A DNA stretch of 19,831 bases from positions 1-19,831 of the forward strand of contig PVWD01000095.1 in the NCBI GenBank assembly GCA_003003615.1. The letters run 5' to 3'. The notes below the pieces were generated by a model. That model made no database searches and was not told the DNA's origin. It saw only the letters and a list, made by a program, of their open reading frames with translations. Shown here in pieces: positions 2,986-8,505 of this stretch; position 1 is the first letter of the stretch, and every line of letters begins with the position of its first letter. The translations under genes were made by a program, and so were the position numbers. This DNA comes from a filamentous cyanobacterium CCP2. Lineage in GTDB: Bacteria > Cyanobacteriota > Cyanobacteriia > Elainellales > Elainellaceae.

Positions 2986-3069
2986 ATTAGTCTATCCTCT
3001 TTTCCACGAAACTAGTTTTAACCAGAGGGCAGCAGTCCCCAACCGCGTCCTTACTACGATTGCTCATAC

Positions 3070-3140
3070 TCACCCTTAATCTGCTCCAGGTTATGCCGAT
3101 CGATCAGTTCCCGAATTCGATCGGTTTGCAAGCACTCTTC
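3070..3140. repeat. Copy 1 of a 71-bp direct repeat (67/71 identical to 4991..5061). It is the displaced 3' fragment of an RHH-like gene and contains an internal palindrome CCGATCGA-N13-TCGATCGG.
   Basis: Direct comparison of the two copies. On the minus strand this copy reads ...PEECLQTDRIRELIDRHNLEQIKGEYEQS*, against ...EEYLQTDRIRELIDRHNLDQIKGDDEAE* for the intact gene at 4975..5181. Confidence 0.8.
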
Positions 3141-3187: not shown

Positions 3188-3229
3188 GATCAGTTTAAAT
3201 GTTACTGATCTTAAATGTTACTGATCAGT
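3188..3229. repeat. Composite palindrome with a tandem 16-bp duplication (TTAAATGTTACTGATC x2), bounded by GATCAGT/ACTGATC arms
   Basis: GATCAGT-TTAAATGTT-ACTGATC-TTAAATGTT-ACTGATCAGT. The tandem units are 3195-3210 and 3211-3226. Sits downstream of the high-GC gene and inside the repeat-bracketed segment. Confidence 0.6.
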
Positions 3230-3369: not shown

Positions 3370-4158
3370 TCATCGTGCTCTTCTCGGTCTCTTTGAAGCC
3401 GCGTTCATTCGTTCTATTTGCGTCTGCTGTTCGTCGAGATTGCGCTCGTGTTCGGCCTTTGCTTCGTGATGGGCGAACTGATCGCCCGATGCTCGGTCTG
3501 AGAGTTCGTGCAGACGGTGCTTGCGGCCATAGAGGACGAGCAGATCCCTAGGACGAAGCTGTAGATCCGCTGGAGGAGTCCCGATGTAATCTTCACGTGA
3601 TCGCTTGACCCCAAGTACGAGGACACCCTCGGCTGCAAGGTTGAGCTCACCAATCGCGTGATTCGCCAACCAGGTACCGTCTTCGACTTCAACCTCAACG
3701 ATCCGGTAATCCTCGCGAAGATGCAGCAGGTCGGCGTAATCTCTCAGATCGAGCGTGGTGTAGCGGGCCAGTGAACGCTCGATCAGGGGCGTGAGCACTC
3801 GGTTGAAGGCCCGGCTTCGAGCCAGTCCGATGAGCACGCAGACGCCCAGCAGCAGCACCAACAAACGCTCCGGTGCCGTCTGCCCAGATCCGACGAAGGA
3901 GAGCAGCAGCGTCGATATCGCCGACACGACTCCGATGGAGCCAAGTCGAATGAGTTGGGTGGCAATCCGCCGCCGCGCTGGGTTCTTCACAATGGACTCT
4001 GCTTCGTCAGTCGTGAATCCGGTGCCTGAGAAGGCCGAGAGTGCTTGGAAACGCGCCACCTCCTCCGATAAACCCGTCATCAAGAAAGCAACGGAGCCTA
4101 CCCGAATCACCAACATTGAAAGGGCCAGAACGAGCAGAAGGGAGACGACAGAAACCAT
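3370..4158 (-). CDS. Membrane protein with a C-terminal TrkA-C/RCK_C regulatory domain (transporter- or channel-associated), foreign high-GC origin
   Basis: 262 aa. N-terminal hydrophobic helices (VVSLLLVLALSMLVIRVGSVAFLM, LGSIGVVSAISTLLLSFVG, LLVLLLGVCVLIGLA) and a TrkA-C-like fold (DYRIVEVEVEDGTWLANHAIGELNLAAEGVLVLGVKRSREDYIGTPPADLQLRPRDLLVLYG). About 60% GC. A strong SD, GAGGAAGGAG, sits 6 nt upstream of the ATG, which is atypical for cyanobacteria. Very few HIP1 sites. Confidence 0.75.
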   Translation of the reverse strand: MVSVVSLLLVLALSMLVIRVGSVAFLMTGLSEEVARFQALSAFSGTGFTTDEAESIVKNPARRRIATQLIRLGSIGVVSAISTLLLSFVGSGQTAPERLLVLLLGVCVLIGLARSRAFNRVLTPLIERSLARYTTLDLRDYADLLHLREDYRIVEVEVEDGTWLANHAIGELNLAAEGVLVLGVKRSREDYIGTPPADLQLRPRDLLVLYGRKHRLHELSDRASGDQFAHHEAKAEHERNLDEQQTQIERMNAASKRPRRAR

Positions 4159-4201
4159 AGCTACTCCTTCCTCAGGGAACAGGGTGAGAACCTGGTTTAA
4201 T

Positions 4202-4456
4202 TCAGAATGCTCCGATCAGTAGCTCGGAGTAGGATTCAAGTCCTCGTGTGAAGTACGCGCGCAGCACCTCCCTACCCACTACCTTTCCTGACGGATTATC
4301 AAGCAGTTTCGCTGCGACGGGCGATACCAGGATCACATCCGCTGCGTAATGGGACAAGCTGGTATCGAGGTCATGTGAGTTCCATGCCTGTACCCAATGA
4401 TGGGCGAAATCGTGCAGTTCTATCTCGGTGAGCATGGCAGTCTCCGCAAGAGGCAT
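4202..4456 (-). pseudogene. SnoaL-like/NTF2-like small protein, probably C-terminally truncated. Alternative starts: GTG at 4492, ATG at 4435.
   Basis: MLTEIELHDFAHHWVQAWNSHDLDTSLSHYAADVILVSP... matches the NTF2-like/SnoaL polyketide-cyclase-like N-terminal half. The ORF ends after about 85-96 aa, right at the junction with the high-GC segment, whereas the family is usually 120-140 aa. Confidence 0.5.
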
Positions 4457-4479
4457 AACTATATATTCACCGTCAAAAG

Positions 4480-4689
4480 TGCGGGATAACACCCCTATGT
4501 TCCACGATTGTCCATCAGATCTGCGGGATAAAACCAGACTTTCAGGATTTAAACAGAAAAATTGATAGTTAAGTCTGGGGATTTGGGGTGTTATCCGTCA
4601 CATTTGATAGTTAAGTATGGAGATTCGGGTGCCTATCTGTCACTTTTGCTGGATAACATCCTTGATAACGGTATTATCCAGCATCTATC
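4480..4689. promoter_or_regulatory. Cluster of GGATAAC/GTTATCC motifs (repeat-rich att-like or operator-like region). It includes a 42-bp tandem imperfect repeat (4563..4604 and 4605..4646, about 36/42 identical) and a perfect palindrome GCTGGATAA-N17-TTATCCAGC (4648..4682). It lies immediately upstream of the recombinase remnant.
   Basis: Motifs read directly: GCGGGATAACACCCC (4481), GCGGGATAAAACC (4522), GGGGTGTTATCCGTCAC (4585, inverted relative to 4481), GCCTATCTGTCAC, CTGGATAACATCC, TTGATAACGG, GTATTATCCAGC. Each tandem unit carries GTTAAGT. Confidence 0.55.
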
Positions 4690-4830
4690 ATGTCGCAACC
4701 TCAACCGCCACGCCTGCTTGATCAAGTCCGGCGATCGATCCCTCTCAAGCACTTCAGCCTCAAAACTGAGAAATCTTGCGTTCACTACATTCGCGATTTC
4801 ATTCGCGGTAAATGTCATTCAAAGACATAG
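4690..4830 (+). pseudogene. N-terminal remnant (46 codons) of an IntI/XerD-like tyrosine recombinase (Phage_integr_N / PF13495-type SAM-like domain)
   Basis: MSQPQPPRLLDQVRRSIPLKHFSLKTEKSCVHYIRDFIRGKCHSKT* parallels the IntI1 N-terminus ...[33 protein letters not shown]. It ends at a stop after 46 codons. No downstream frame continues a recombinase catalytic domain. Confidence 0.6.
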
Positions 4831-4974
4831 GAGTAATCGTGTAAGAACTACTGAAGTGCAAAATCTAAGCAACGTCGTGCCTTGGCTACGTTTTTTCTTA
4901 ACCTGCAAACCATCGCCTATCTTTTCTGCGATCGCCTCAATCTGATCCACATCAGCTATGCCTGCCAAAAATTC

Positions 4975-5181
4975 TTACTCCGCCTCATCGTCACCCTTAA
5001 TCTGATCCAGGTTATGCCGATCGATCAATTCCCGAATTCGATCGGTTTGCAAGTATTCTTCCAACGCCTCATTGAAGAACTCAGATACAGAGACATTCAT
5101 CAAAGCTGCTAAGGCTTTGACCAGTACGCTTGTTTCAGGATCTAGATAGACTCTAACCTCTGGGTTACGTTTAGCGTTCAC
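4975..5181 (-). CDS. Small RHH (ribbon-helix-helix, CopG/ParD-like) putative DNA-binding or antitoxin protein. Orphan, with no adjacent toxin ORF.
   Basis: 68 aa. RVYLDPETSVLVKALAALMNVSVSEFFNEALEEYL fits the beta-strand plus two-helix RHH pattern. Its 3' 71 bp is duplicated at 3070..3140. Confidence 0.55.
   Translation of the reverse strand: MNAKRNPEVRVYLDPETSVLVKALAALMNVSVSEFFNEALEEYLQTDRIRELIDRHNLDQIKGDDEAE
4991..5061. repeat. Copy 2 of the 71-bp direct repeat, forming the 3' end of the RHH-like CDS
   Basis: 67/71 identity to 3070..3140. Same internal palindrome CCGATCGA-N13-TCGATCGG. Confidence 0.8.
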
Positions 5182-5276
5182 GCGATCGGGTTTGTAGATT
5201 TTTTTCCATACCCTATTGTCTGATATCGAGGTAGTGAGCTATCGTAGTATCGTACTGCCGTAATGACGTAAAACCT

Positions 5277-5408
5277 ATGCCGACCCTCTCCGATGATGAG
5301 TTCAACCTGATCCGCAAACTCCTCATGGACTTACGCTCCATCAAAACCTCCGATCTCGACAAAGCCCTTGCTATCCTGCATAAACGCAACAAACCCATTG
5401 ACCCCTAA
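5277..5408 (+). CDS. Small ORF A1 (43 aa) of a duplicated module. Paralogous to a 27-codon ORF at 8296..8379.
   Basis: MPTLSDDEFNLIRKLLMDLRSIKTSDLDKALAILHKRNKPIDP, against copy B MDLRSIKTSDLDKALAIMSKRTKTNDR. The coding status is uncertain and it could be a non-coding repeated element. Confidence 0.3.
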   Translation: MPTLSDDEFNLIRKLLMDLRSIKTSDLDKALAILHKRNKPIDP

Positions 5409-5600
5409 CCCATCAACCCCTGTACGGGCAAAGCATTGGCAGTGAGATGTATGAATCAAAATCAAAAGTTTCTATGCAAATGCTTCGCCCCTACCCGCGC
5501 AACCCCACAACCGATCGTCCTAAACCCGATCGCCCCTTTCATATGGAGAATTCACCATGCTGATTTTGAATGATGCTCAAGCGTTGATTGTGGAATCATT
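5323..5600. repeat. Copy A of a diverged ~250-bp direct repeat module. Copy B is 8294..8505. The two copies flank the NTPase and pentapeptide gene pair.
   Basis: A near-identical 45-bp core (GGACTTACGCTCCATCAAAACCTCCGATCTCGACAAAGCCCTTGC) occurs at 5328-5372 and 8299-8343. A second conserved block lies around the ATGCTGATTTTGAA start. Confidence 0.75.
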
Positions 5601-5837: not shown

Positions 5838-7310
5838 ATGCCCCTGGACATTCGCCAACTTAACCTGGGTTCCGATTCAGCCGAGCGCGATATCGCCATT
5901 GGACTATCCGAGTATTTCTATCAGAACTCCACCTATCACAAGTTTTTCGACAGCGGCAAAACCATCCTGGTCGGCAATCGGGGCAGCGGCAAAAGTGCCA
6001 TCTTCAAGTACATGGCAGCAGTGGAAGCCCGTAAAGGCAACCTCATCCTCGAATTGTCACCAGAGGAATACTCCTACGAACTATTATCGGAACATTTACG
6101 CAGTGAGAAGGAAGGCTCTTGGGGCAAGCAAAGCTCATACTCGGTCGCCTGGCAATATCTGCTCTATTGCCTCATTTTCAAGAAGATTGTAGAGGAAAAG
6201 CGGGGCTTATTACTGGGGAGTCAAAAGGATATTTTTACCTACGTCCAAAGCCATCTACAGAACCAAAATCTCCATTCCATCAGCATTCTTTTCAACTACT
6301 TGAAGCGGCTAGAGGAAATTAAGCTGGGTAGCCATCAAAGCTTACAGCGATCGCGCGAGCTTCAGAGTCTCTATAGTTTAGAAGAAATCAAGCAACTGCT
6401 GCCGAGCCTCAAAAAAGTATTGGGAAAGCTCAGAGTCAAAGTTTTTATTGATGAACTGGACAAAGGGTGGGATAACTCAGAAGATGCCAAATATTTTCTA
6501 GCTGGACTGTTTCAAGCTGCCCAAAAGCTCAATTTGATCAGCTCTAACTTAAAAATCTATATCTCGATTCGCCAGGAGCTATTTGATAACATTCCTCAAA
6601 TCTACGAAGATGCTCAGAAAATTCGTGAAGACGTAGAGGTGATTCGCTGGGGCAAAGCTGAACTCCTGGAGCTAATTGGACTACGGATTGCCCACTGCTT
6701 CCCGGAACTGCAACAGTCTAATGGTCTGCGCTGCTGGAATTCCATCTTTGTCTCCCAACTGCCCCTCCGCAGCGAAGAATCGATCGGCTCTACATCAGCA
6801 GATTACATCATCGATCGCACCCAACTTCGTCCCCGTGAACTCCTACAGTTTTGCAAACTCTGCATCGAGTACTATAACGGTGGCAAGCGGATTGAGGAAA
6901 ATACTATCTATGCGGCTGAAGAAGTTTATTCAGAACAAAAAATTAAAGATTTAGCCTCAGAATATCGCTTCAAATACCCTCATTTATTAGATCTATTTGA
7001 GGTGTTTCGGGGACATAAAAGCCACTACGAAAAAAATGATCTGGAGTATCTGCTACTGTCTATTGTTTGCGGTGAAGTTGATGTGGATCAGGCAGCATCC
7101 TGGGTGCAGGAACTCGACTACCTGGAACTAAAAAAACTGCTCTGGAATATCGGCTTTCTTAAAGCAAAGGTGCCTCGGCAAATGGGTCAAAACATTGGAG
7201 GCAAAGGTACTTTCTTTGGACACTATGAATTGCCAAGTATCAACCTGGAAAACGTTGAACACTTTTGCATCCACCCCGCTTTCTGCTACTTCCTGAGCCT
7301 CAAATCTTAG
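5838..7310 (+). CDS. P-loop NTPase, NACHT/STAND-like (or other AAA+-like), with a ~200-aa C-terminal helical domain and no fused repeat array
   Basis: 490 aa. Walker A KTILVGNRGSGKSAIFKYM, Walker B RVKVFIDELDKGWD (hhhhDE...D), a TSR-like sensor-1 KIYISIRQE, and a sensor-2-like RPRELLQF. Family assignment is from motifs only. The stop TAG directly abuts the downstream ORF. Confidence 0.8.
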   Translation: MPLDIRQLNLGSDSAERDIAIGLSEYFYQNSTYHKFFDSGKTILVGNRGSGKSAIFKYMAAVEARKGNLILELSPEEYSYELLSEHLRSEKEGSWGKQSSYSVAWQYLLYCLIFKKIVEEKRGLLLGSQKDIFTYVQSHLQNQNLHSISILFNYLKRLEEIKLGSHQSLQRSRELQSLYSLEEIKQLLPSLKKVLGKLRVKVFIDELDKGWDNSEDAKYFLAGLFQAAQKLNLISSNLKIYISIRQELFDNIPQIYEDAQKIREDVEVIRWGKAELLELIGLRIAHCFPELQQSNGLRCWNSIFVSQLPLRSEESIGSTSADYIIDRTQLRPRELLQFCKLCIEYYNGGKRIEENTIYAAEEVYSEQKIKDLASEYRFKYPHLLDLFEVFRGHKSHYEKNDLEYLLLSIVCGEVDVDQAASWVQELDYLELKKLLWNIGFLKAKVPRQMGQNIGGKGTFFGHYELPSINLENVEHFCIHPAFCYFLSLKS

Positions 7311-7376
7311 GTGCTGTTATGCGACAATTTGGTCATACTTTTAAGATTCCATCTAATCGCTATAGAGAGAACCAAT

Positions 7377-8189
7377 ATGCCATGGAACCCGCGAAAATTA
7401 ACGTGTACGCTAGAGTTAGTGGCCCAAAAGATCCCCACTTGGGTCGCCGTGTTGATATCAGTGGTGGGCCTTGCAACGATCGCCCTCTGGGTTCAGGAAG
7501 ATATCGTCATCCGTTCACCGCTTGATCTATTCCAACGCGATACCCTTAAAATTTTCTTTGAGAATGCTGAGTCGTTTGCGATCGTGGCAGCGGTGATTCT
7601 CTACTTCAAAGACGCACCCGATCGCAAAGCCAAGAAACACTACGAAGCGTGGAGTATTATTGACAATGCGGCTGCCGCCAAAGTTGCTACCAGTTACGCG
7701 CGCTTTCAGGCCCTTCAAGACCTCCATAAAGATGGGGTTGCACTTTGTGCTCTGGATGCTCCCCGCGCTAACCTGGCAAAAATTCAGCTCTCCGGTGCCC
7801 ACCTCAATGAGGCGAATTTGCCGGGGGCTGACCTGCGAGAAGCCTATCTGCACCGCTGCGACCTGTCCCAGGCGAATCTACAGGGAGCGAATCTGCAAAA
7901 GGCCAACCTCAAAGGGGCGAACCTGCGTGGAGCGAATCTGCAAGAAGCCAATTTGCGTGATGCCAATCTAAGTGGGGCTGATCTGCGGGAAGCGAATTTA
8001 CGGGGAGCCAACTTACGCAATGCGGAACTCTGGAAATCCCAGTTTTTGGGTGCTGATTTGGAGGATGCAGAACTGAAGTGGGCCGAGCTTCAGGGTGCTG
8101 AACTATACGGGGCAAGGCTGCACCGCACAGTGATGCCCGATGGTAGTTTAGAACAGCAGGAAATTGAGCTTTGGAGCCACTTCCTGTAG
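7377..8189 (+). CDS. Membrane-anchored pentapeptide-repeat protein. Alternative GTG start at 7311 directly abuts the NTPase stop.
   Basis: Two hydrophobic helices (IPTWVAVLISVVGLATIALWV; SFAIVAAVILYF) followed by about 25 A(D/N)LxG-type pentapeptide repeats (ANLQGANLQKANLKGANLRGANLQEANLRDANLSGADLREANLRGANL...). Confidence 0.85.
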   Translation: MPWNPRKLTCTLELVAQKIPTWVAVLISVVGLATIALWVQEDIVIRSPLDLFQRDTLKIFFENAESFAIVAAVILYFKDAPDRKAKKHYEAWSIIDNAAAAKVATSYARFQALQDLHKDGVALCALDAPRANLAKIQLSGAHLNEANLPGADLREAYLHRCDLSQANLQGANLQKANLKGANLRGANLQEANLRDANLSGADLREANLRGANLRNAELWKSQFLGADLEDAELKWAELQGAELYGARLHRTVMPDGSLEQQEIELWSHFL

Positions 8190-8293: not shown

Positions 8294-8505
8294 ATATGGA
8301 CTTACGCTCCATCAAAACCTCCGATCTCGACAAAGCCCTTGCCATCATGAGCAAACGGACTAAAACAAACGATCGCTGACTGGGCGGGCAAGATGCCCAC
8401 CCCACAAGAAGTTAGGCAGACAAGATGTTAATACAAGCCCACCCCTTTGATTTGGAGATTGACCATGCTGATTTTGAACGATGTCCAAGCATTGGATGAA
8501 ATTGT
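8294..8505. repeat. Copy B of the diverged direct repeat module. It carries the short ORFs 8296..8379 and 8465..8530.
   Basis: See copy A. Its central part is shortened and diverged. Confidence 0.75.

Follow-up and report, generated by a model that had tools for sequence, protein, structure and literature searches.

A putative attI with ten phased core-like boxes beside a probable integron integrase remnant in a filamentous cyanobacterium

The window analysed here, a 19,831-nucleotide stretch of contig PVWD01000095.1 from the filamentous cyanobacterium CCP2 (GenBank assembly GCA_003003615.1), carries at 4690–4830 on the plus strand the probable remnant of an integron integrase gene, in which codons 1–38 (4690–4803) are homologous to IntI before the frame is lost and a stop codon follows. 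This ORF matches only two NCBIfam models, NF011946 and TIGR02249, both of them integron-integrase models, over profile positions 1–33 and with a score that stays under the cutoff because the ORF is short. When full-length relatives were used as tblastn queries, only residues 1–38 matched and the remainder of intI was found nowhere else in the window; nucleotide homology to the intI family likewise ends at ~4804. The locus also occurs, arranged alike, on contig PVWE01000305.1 of GenBank assembly GCA_003003915.1. In the protein database the remnant has only three matches, all truncated too, which sit in unrelated gene neighbourhoods yet have their upstream DNA in common.

Full-length relatives preceded by the same upstream block (321 aa; loci L009 and L011) score 482 bits against TIGR02249, for which the cutoff is 265, and align end to end with VchIntIA (PDB 2A3V), gap-free through the IntI-specific additional domain, with an E value of 1.6e-95. 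Loci with an intact intI include L008 (Nodosilinea sp. P-1105), L009 (Phormidium sp. FACHB-1136), L011 and L158. The IntI profile match begins at residue 9 of 321, and to our knowledge the IntI family has no separate arm-binding domain. Decay takes other forms as well: at L002:1478–1560 an intI copy has an in-frame stop followed by an internal deletion that brings the C-terminal GVRSP(M/L)D motif up against ~residue 70 (STQ).

Directly upstream of the remnant lies a cluster of repeated motifs. The original prediction, which had placed at least seven GGATAAC/GTTATCC-type motifs here in both orientations, was right about the cluster and too low in its count: the region holds five 42-bp units with a total of ten half-sites in phase. 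The module begins 27 bp to the left of the edge first drawn, at 4453. The proposed inverted pair was located as TGCGGGATAACACCCC at 4480–4495 and GGGGTGTTATCCGTCA at 4585–4600, and the palindrome as GCTGGATAA (4648–4656)-N17-TTATCCAGC (4674–4682), ahead of the recombinase ATG at 4690. The 42-bp tandem is present at 4562–4603 and 4604–4645 with an ungapped identity of 33/42 (79%; 82% by TRF) instead of the 36/42 first given; its GTTAAGT repeat looks unlike the GGATAAC boxes because of conserved position-specific variants (TTAAAC at R2, GGTTAA at F3/F4).

Enumeration of the motifs and their spacing, one of the checks proposed with the prediction, yielded ten boxes separated by gaps that strictly alternate between 18 and 12 bp, and a second check, against shuffled sequence, put the cluster far above chance expectation. 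GGATAA/TTATCC hexamers have 5 of their 12 occurrences in the window within 254 bp. All four window matches to TGCKGGATAAC with at most one mismatch fall within 4480–4683, as do 6 of the 18 with at most two mismatches, and none of 200 shuffles reached 18 matches. Self-similarity at a lag of 42 is 0.50, a value that 0 of 2,000 shuffles reached at any lag. An additional GATAAC at 4664 is not conserved in relatives. The region is also non-coding, as had been proposed: related copies differ by single-base indels and by their upstream reading frames. The overlapping ORF at 4562–4945 was rejected as coding, given the single-base indels in relatives and an in-frame upstream extension that ranges from 2 to 49 codons; the N-terminal extension of one database protein, P0003, is array DNA in translation.

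The distal edge of the module is formed by a putative attI simple site at 4453–4471, made up of an R box (GCATAAC, 4453–4459; GTTATGC on the minus strand), a TATAT spacer and an L box (ATTCACC, 4465–4471). By analogy with G↓TTRRRY, crossover would take place between 4458 and 4459. Five 42-bp units sit between this simple site and the intI start codon, and within them ten core-like boxes with the consensus GTTATCC are found at 4484–4679. Box orientation alternates between F (GGATAA-like) and R (TTATCC-like), such that each 42-bp unit is an inverted pair, with the unit consensus (ATCTGC)TGGATAAC(ACCC) / (GGGT)GTTATCCAG(CAGAT). Centre-to-centre spacing of the boxes is 24 and 18 bp in the array versus 12 in the simple site.

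Unit 1 (4472–4513) comprises F1 (GGATAA, 4484–4489) and R1 (TTGTCC, 4508–4513), with 0 and 1 mismatches to the consensus, respectively. Unit 2 (4514–4554), which is 41 bp long in the window, pairs F2 (GGATAA, 4526–4531) with a degenerate R2 (TTAAAC, 4549–4554), a variant that is 92% conserved across loci. In unit 3 (4555–4596), F3 reads AGTTAA (4567–4572) and R3 TTATCC (4591–4596), and in unit 4 (4597–4638), F4 again reads AGTTAA (4609–4614), followed by a decayed R4 (CTATCT, 4633–4638) with 2 mismatches, the sole box lost in the window copy. These two units hold the first and second copies of the 42-bp tandem, whose register is shifted 7 bp into the unit in each case. Unit 5 (4639–4683), with F5 (GGATAA, 4651–4656) and R5 (TTATCC, 4674–4679), is the N17-spaced palindrome. 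Overall, 9 of the 10 boxes in the window lie within one mismatch of their position-specific consensus.

Across the edge of the simple site, the minus strand of 4436–4458 reads (G)TTATGCCTCTTGCGGAGACTGCC, a cassette-derived leader, and leads into a truncated SnoaL-like ORF of 77 aa at 4202–4435, also on the minus strand (Pfam SnoaL_2, 8.5e-07, profile positions 2–51 of 102). The start codon of this ORF is 22 nt past the junction and has GGAGA ahead of it. The ORF, whose transcription runs away from intI, is probably what is left of the first gene cassette.

A scan of species-representative genomes returned 32 loci, mostly from Leptolyngbya, Nodosilinea, Elainella, Phormidium and related filamentous cyanobacteria; several genomes have two or three copies, and intI is mostly decayed. 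A block of ~235 bp precedes this intI clade in about 30 cyanobacterial loci, those with full-length IntI genes included. Eighteen arrays align over the 233–237 bp that separate a fixed boundary from the ATG, and the most invariant stretch among them is AACTAT.TATT.A (4457–4469 in the window). On the far side, homology ends at ATAG↓TT (cassette strand) in all loci that keep the boundary, and the flanks beyond are unrelated. Family homology in the window is limited to ~4456–4804, with nothing to the left of ~4456 homologous to other loci. At the junction stands a GTTRRRY-like heptamer whose last four bases vary by locus (AGGC, AGAC, ATGC, AGCT, GGGC and others), and these heptamers are distributed like the attC R′ boxes of the same loci. 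The window flank GTTATGCCTCTTGC exactly matches the cassette start found after attC L007:4975–5059 and agrees with the cassette-start consensus GTTA(G/T)(G/C)C(C/T)(G/T)C(T).

The direct repeats in the flanks of L007 and L015 are imperfect palindromes of 85–97 nt with the form RYYYAAC...GTTRRRY. A canonical attC regular expression combined with a folding scan gave nothing in the window and missed the real sites of relatives; a covariance model seeded with 8 attC sites was used in its place and run on the related loci. This model added 29 sites, giving 37 in all from 20 distinct loci and of a single polarity, and all but one are on the cassette side of the block. In L007, the cassette ORFs between attC sites are all divergent from intI. 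A fixed boundary followed by a locus-specific flank is the pattern that would be expected at an attI/cassette junction. Because conservation stops at ATAG↓TT and at variable heptamers, with attC arrays and divergent cassettes beyond, comparison of the sequences identifies the block as an attI and establishes its anatomy, its conservation and its junction between 4458 and 4459.

Several features of individual cassette flanks deserve mention. The cassette starts in L002, L007, L010, L015, L022, L026, L030 and L032 share GTTRRRC(C/T)GCTT... over the first 12–35 nt, and many attI-adjacent flanks continue this shared start with ...GGTTGAGGCAG. An ungapped search with a cassette-leader consensus gave no result, because the motif varies in length. 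At attC L007:3675–3761, the outer flank ahead of R″ is complementary to the one past R′, and therefore the attC palindrome in this group may reach ~8 bp past the R box; the shared cassette-leader motif can be explained as an outer palindromic extension of attC. At L004:5733–5769, a perfect 19-bp tandem duplication of TTCCAGAGGTCTAACTAT spans the attI/cassette junction, and the core GTTAGAC therefore occurs twice, 19 bp apart. At L001:2881–2968, an attC immediately adjoins the truncated intI remnant, thus placing a three-unit attI and 37 intI codons between cassette junction and attC in the manner of a delta-attI-type cassette.

The boxes themselves are the better-conserved part of the array, their columns being 90% identical across loci as compared with 75% for the other array columns. 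Inverted symmetry amounts to 67–69% complementarity in both registers versus 32–47% in slid controls, and covariation is no better than in shuffles (189/500 and 280/500). Symmetry without covariation indicates half-sites that are each held to a consensus, and argues for recognition of duplex DNA by a protein, not a hairpin. A hairpin or cruciform reading of the palindromes was dropped on the same grounds, covariation being absent in either register, and a known RNA family was set aside after an Rfam scan of 4100–5300 gave nothing above noise. Read as GTTATCCAGCAG, the box has GTTA, C7 and G9C10 in common with the core sites of cassettes in the same genomes. The accessory boxes depart from GTTRRRY at positions 5–6 (TC), and the 24/18-bp spacing together with TCC instead of RRY would bar them from use in crossover. 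In a distant IntI clade from Lyngbya confervoides (L022/L024), a block of similar length holds seven GGRTGTTARR boxes in both orientations, and Microcystis copies carry CGGTCTAACACCC-type repeats, so that box sequence changes with the integrase clade. Since IntI has no arm-binding domain, any extra sites would have to be of core type, as these boxes are. The boxes are thus most likely accessory IntI-binding sites, resembling DR1/DR2 of attI1 and differing from them in being five times as many and palindromic. Autoregulation, which the original prediction had listed as an operator function, would be at most a secondary role.

The F3 variant in L003, L014, L025 and L026 reads AGGTTAAG, which we take to be the reverse complement of the cyanobacterial Pho-box unit CTTAACCT; F3 and F4 of the window (4567–4574 and 4609–4616) read AGTTAAGT, a near match at most. 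The likeness is probably a coincidence, as the boxes are single and do not form 11-bp-spaced repeats. A scan of viral contigs with AGGAWTTAAACAGAA gave at least 120 chance matches, with no box cluster in any of the matches listed, and is uninformative because the pattern is too unspecific.

Natural variation in the family is quantised, with arrays of five (233–237 bp), three (149–150 bp) or one unit (65–69 bp). Three-unit arrays are found in L001 (149 bp) and L021 (150 bp) and one-unit arrays in L017 (69 bp) and L030 (65 bp), and reduced arrays occur only beside decayed intI. The complete arrays that adjoin an intact intI (n = 3) all have five units and 9–10 good boxes. In more than 25 loci from many genera, at an overall identity of 70–80%, the order of the five units and the position-specific variants (TTAAAC at R2, GGTTAA at F4) are kept. 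A search anchored on the array instead of on intI retrieved 16 metagenomic loci, and a full-length intI is present in one of them. Complete five-unit arrays in L159, L160, L165 (identical to L169) and L171 lose homology 3–10 bp past box R5, with no intI within 2.5–7 kb of them, and at least L165/L169 still head attC arrays. As a group, such orphan arrays retain a mean of 8.6 of 10 boxes. The intI-less arrays that head attC sites would be classed as plain attC clusters by current integron categories.

Insertion sequences also occur inside or near the array, in L016 and L018/L019. The element at L019:3480–4645, present in L018 too, is bounded by inverted ends, TAGGGTTGATTCTCT, contains two ORFs (185 and 180 aa) and lies in the unit 5 spacer with a duplicated CACCCTCTACCCC. 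A similar insertion of ~1.15 kb lies between array and intI in L016 (~672–1800).

We consider it likely that 4453–4689 is the attI of a decayed chromosomal integron of filamentous cyanobacteria, with ten accessory boxes that served IntI. Cassettes would be joined to the simple site at G↓TT (4458/4459), and each of the ten accessory boxes would be a half-site at which an IntI protomer binds double-stranded DNA. A period of 42 bp, equal to four helical turns, would set each box pair in the same helical phase, and the bound protomers could then assemble into a large nucleoprotein array, which would capture the folded attC or hold it in position and favour attI x attC integration as DR1/DR2 do in attI1. 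Binding by IntI and such an enhancer role may be accompanied by a regulatory one: as the array fills the whole intergenic region between intI and cassettes, it probably affects the intI and cassette promoters too. A more far-reaching combination, in which IntI, nucleated on the five units, oligomerises to as many as about a dozen protomers, forms an intasome from core sites only, captures cassettes free of host bending factors, shuts off the promoters and serves a distributed multi-platform integron, is possible but on balance doubtful; in this view the array acts in trans, for which reason a genome would retain more than one orphan attI platform.

The serious alternative is that the block is a promoter/operator for cassettes and intI, with palindromes that act as operators of a host-encoded dimeric regulator and are kept for cassette expression. 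Each unit is palindromic (GGATAA-N18-TTATCC), and a palindrome with an 18-bp gap would also suit a dimeric transcription factor; the array occupies the whole divergent intergenic region, and complete arrays survive without intI while still heading attC arrays. Such near-intact arrays, averaging 8.6 of 10 boxes after loss of intI, could point to an array that serves cassette expression and not IntI. A promoter search in the array returned nothing significant, only weak 9/12-type −35/−10-like matches that are formed by the boxes themselves, and although these would fit an operator region they are no commoner than in shuffles. The agreement of the boxes with IntI-recognised cassette core sites at GTTA, C7 and G9C10, and the change of box sequence with IntI clade, also argue against a host regulator, as do the number of sites, ten being too many for an operator, and the lack of a regulator gene conserved nearby, both flanks being variable. 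We therefore regard the host operator as unlikely. Distinctly less probable is that the units arose by tandem duplication from a single ancestral box pair, have no function and owe their apparent conservation to youth. The units are clearly related to one another, their number shifts in 42-bp steps (the 149–150- and 65–69-bp variants), and units 3 and 4 look homogenised in the window and in L002; set against this, unit order and position-specific variants persist in more than 25 loci of many genera at 70–80% overall identity, the boxes are 90% identical against 75% elsewhere, and reduced arrays are confined to the vicinity of decayed intI.

The remaining explanations involve other replicons or elements. 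Multiple copies per genome in differing contexts, often beside truncated integrase genes, might indicate the end of another mobile element, either a phage or ICE attP with arm-type sites or a Tn7/Mu-like multi-site end, but the integrase is a true IntI without an arm-binding domain, neither transposase nor phage genes are conserved alongside, and the block ends distally in a GTT cassette junction with attC arrays beyond it, which makes this reading very improbable. Arm-type att sites in the lambda sense, raised in the original prediction, fail for the same reason (a profile that starts at residue 9) and because the boxes are core-like. Least probable of all is a remnant replication origin in the form of a DnaA-box cluster or of plasmid or phage iterons. 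TTATCC does occur within the DnaA box TTATCCACA, and the repeats do show phasing; yet TTATCCACA, with one mismatch allowed, matches the window at 8 places, all of them outside 4437–4690, and box positions 7–9 read AGC/GTC, not ACA. There is no adjacent rep or dnaA gene, the neighbours being the SnoaL-like stub and the intI remnant, and in every related locus the block either adjoins intI or stands at the head of attC arrays. The absence of rep and this constant association with intI also exclude an iteron array, and the repeats are inverted pairs. From the list of options given at the outset, attI repeats beside an integron-type integrase remnant thus survive, whereas origin or DnaA sites, iterons and lambda-type arm sites do not.

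Taken as an attI, the block can be compared with the few systems that have been described. In attI1, the accessory repeats DR1/DR2 bind IntI1 and favour attI x attC (PMC8946536); the DR boxes read GTTACGC and GTTATGG (PMC3146285). The attIA of Vibrio cholerae has no accessory repeats and requires host factors (PMC8946536). For most integrons the attI is not known, and accessory repeats have been described mainly for attI1 (PMC4889954, PMC3146285, PMC8946536); attI co-evolves with its integrase (PMC8946536, PMC3146285, PMC4889954). Like attI1, the cyanobacterial module occupies the stretch from intI to the first cassette, has a simple site in which two IntI boxes face in opposite directions and crossover would take place at G↓TT, and bears core-like 7-bp boxes starting with GTTA on the intI side of that site. 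Unlike attI1, it has ten accessory boxes instead of two, these alternate as five 42-bp palindromic units whereas DR1/DR2 are direct repeats, and it spans ~235 bp against ~65 bp; sequence similarity is restricted to GTTA. With the attIA integron it shares a sedentary chromosomal platform and an integrase that aligns end to end with VchIntIA, but here the accessory array is dominant and in attIA there is none. Many phased recombinase sites flanking the crossover, and a presumed higher-order complex, recall lambda-type attP. Lambda arm sites, which are bound by a separate N-terminal arm-binding domain of the integrase, differ from its core sites, in contrast to the core-like boxes here. No description of a five-unit palindromic attI architecture was found in the open-access literature, and in complexity the array far exceeds every attI characterised to date.

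Integrons are on record from cyanobacteria, as are frequent pseudogenes of intI (PMC4889954, PMC2426708), and intI decay is common, about one third of copies being pseudogenes (PMC2426708); attI fragments may end up inside arrays (PMC12901181), and the usual integron categories rest on intI and attC only (PMC4889954). The present loci resemble pseudo-integrons, In0/CALIN and delta-attI-type cassettes in their decay of intI and, at L001, in an attC that adjoins truncated intI. They differ from the In0/CALIN categories in that the recognisable survivor is the attI itself, with or without cassettes.

The window copy is one such survivor. It contains no attC, even with filters off, the best match reaching 15.9 bits far from the site, and its integron context therefore rests on homology; with no attC and only a truncated first-cassette-like ORF, it is a relic and not a working integron. 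The repeat cluster is a fossil to which no present function in cis is assigned, and the attI could act only in trans, if an intact IntI is encoded elsewhere in the genome. A 78-bp direct repeat, 92% identical between 3063–3140 and 4984–5061 and corresponding to the 3′ end of an RHH/RelB-like antitoxin gene at 4975–5181, encloses the relic together with a TrkA_C-domain gene (3370–4158), which suggests a later rearrangement by segmental insertion or duplication. The intergenic DNA that separates the RHH-fragment region from the TrkA_C gene contains, at 3195–3226, two perfect tandem copies of the 16-bp sequence TTAAATGTTACTGATC. Further downstream, a second set of direct repeats, 82–86% identical (5325–5409 versus 8296–8380 and 5550–5586 versus 8458–8494), falls in two small ORFs of 43 and 63 aa and encloses an Sll1717-family P-loop ATPase (5838–7310; NF047389, 290 bits) and a pentapeptide-repeat protein (7311–8189); the enclosed segment may be a defence-island-like insertion.

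The attI is the least characterised part of the integron, and only attI1 has well-studied accessory sites. In the family described here the attI is conserved and easy to recognise, its ten candidate integrase boxes keep strictly to a 42-bp register, and its natural five-, three- and one-unit variants constitute a ready-made deletion series for the role of accessory sites and for the replacement of host factors. The block also serves as a sequence signature for integron platforms without intI, where current tools see attC clusters or nothing. Should the combined reading that we hold to be doubtful prove true, cassette capture would need no host bending factors, the two divergent promoters, of intI and of the cassettes, would be autoregulated, and a single surviving integrase would serve the platform in the window as well as the intI-less arrays that head attC clusters.
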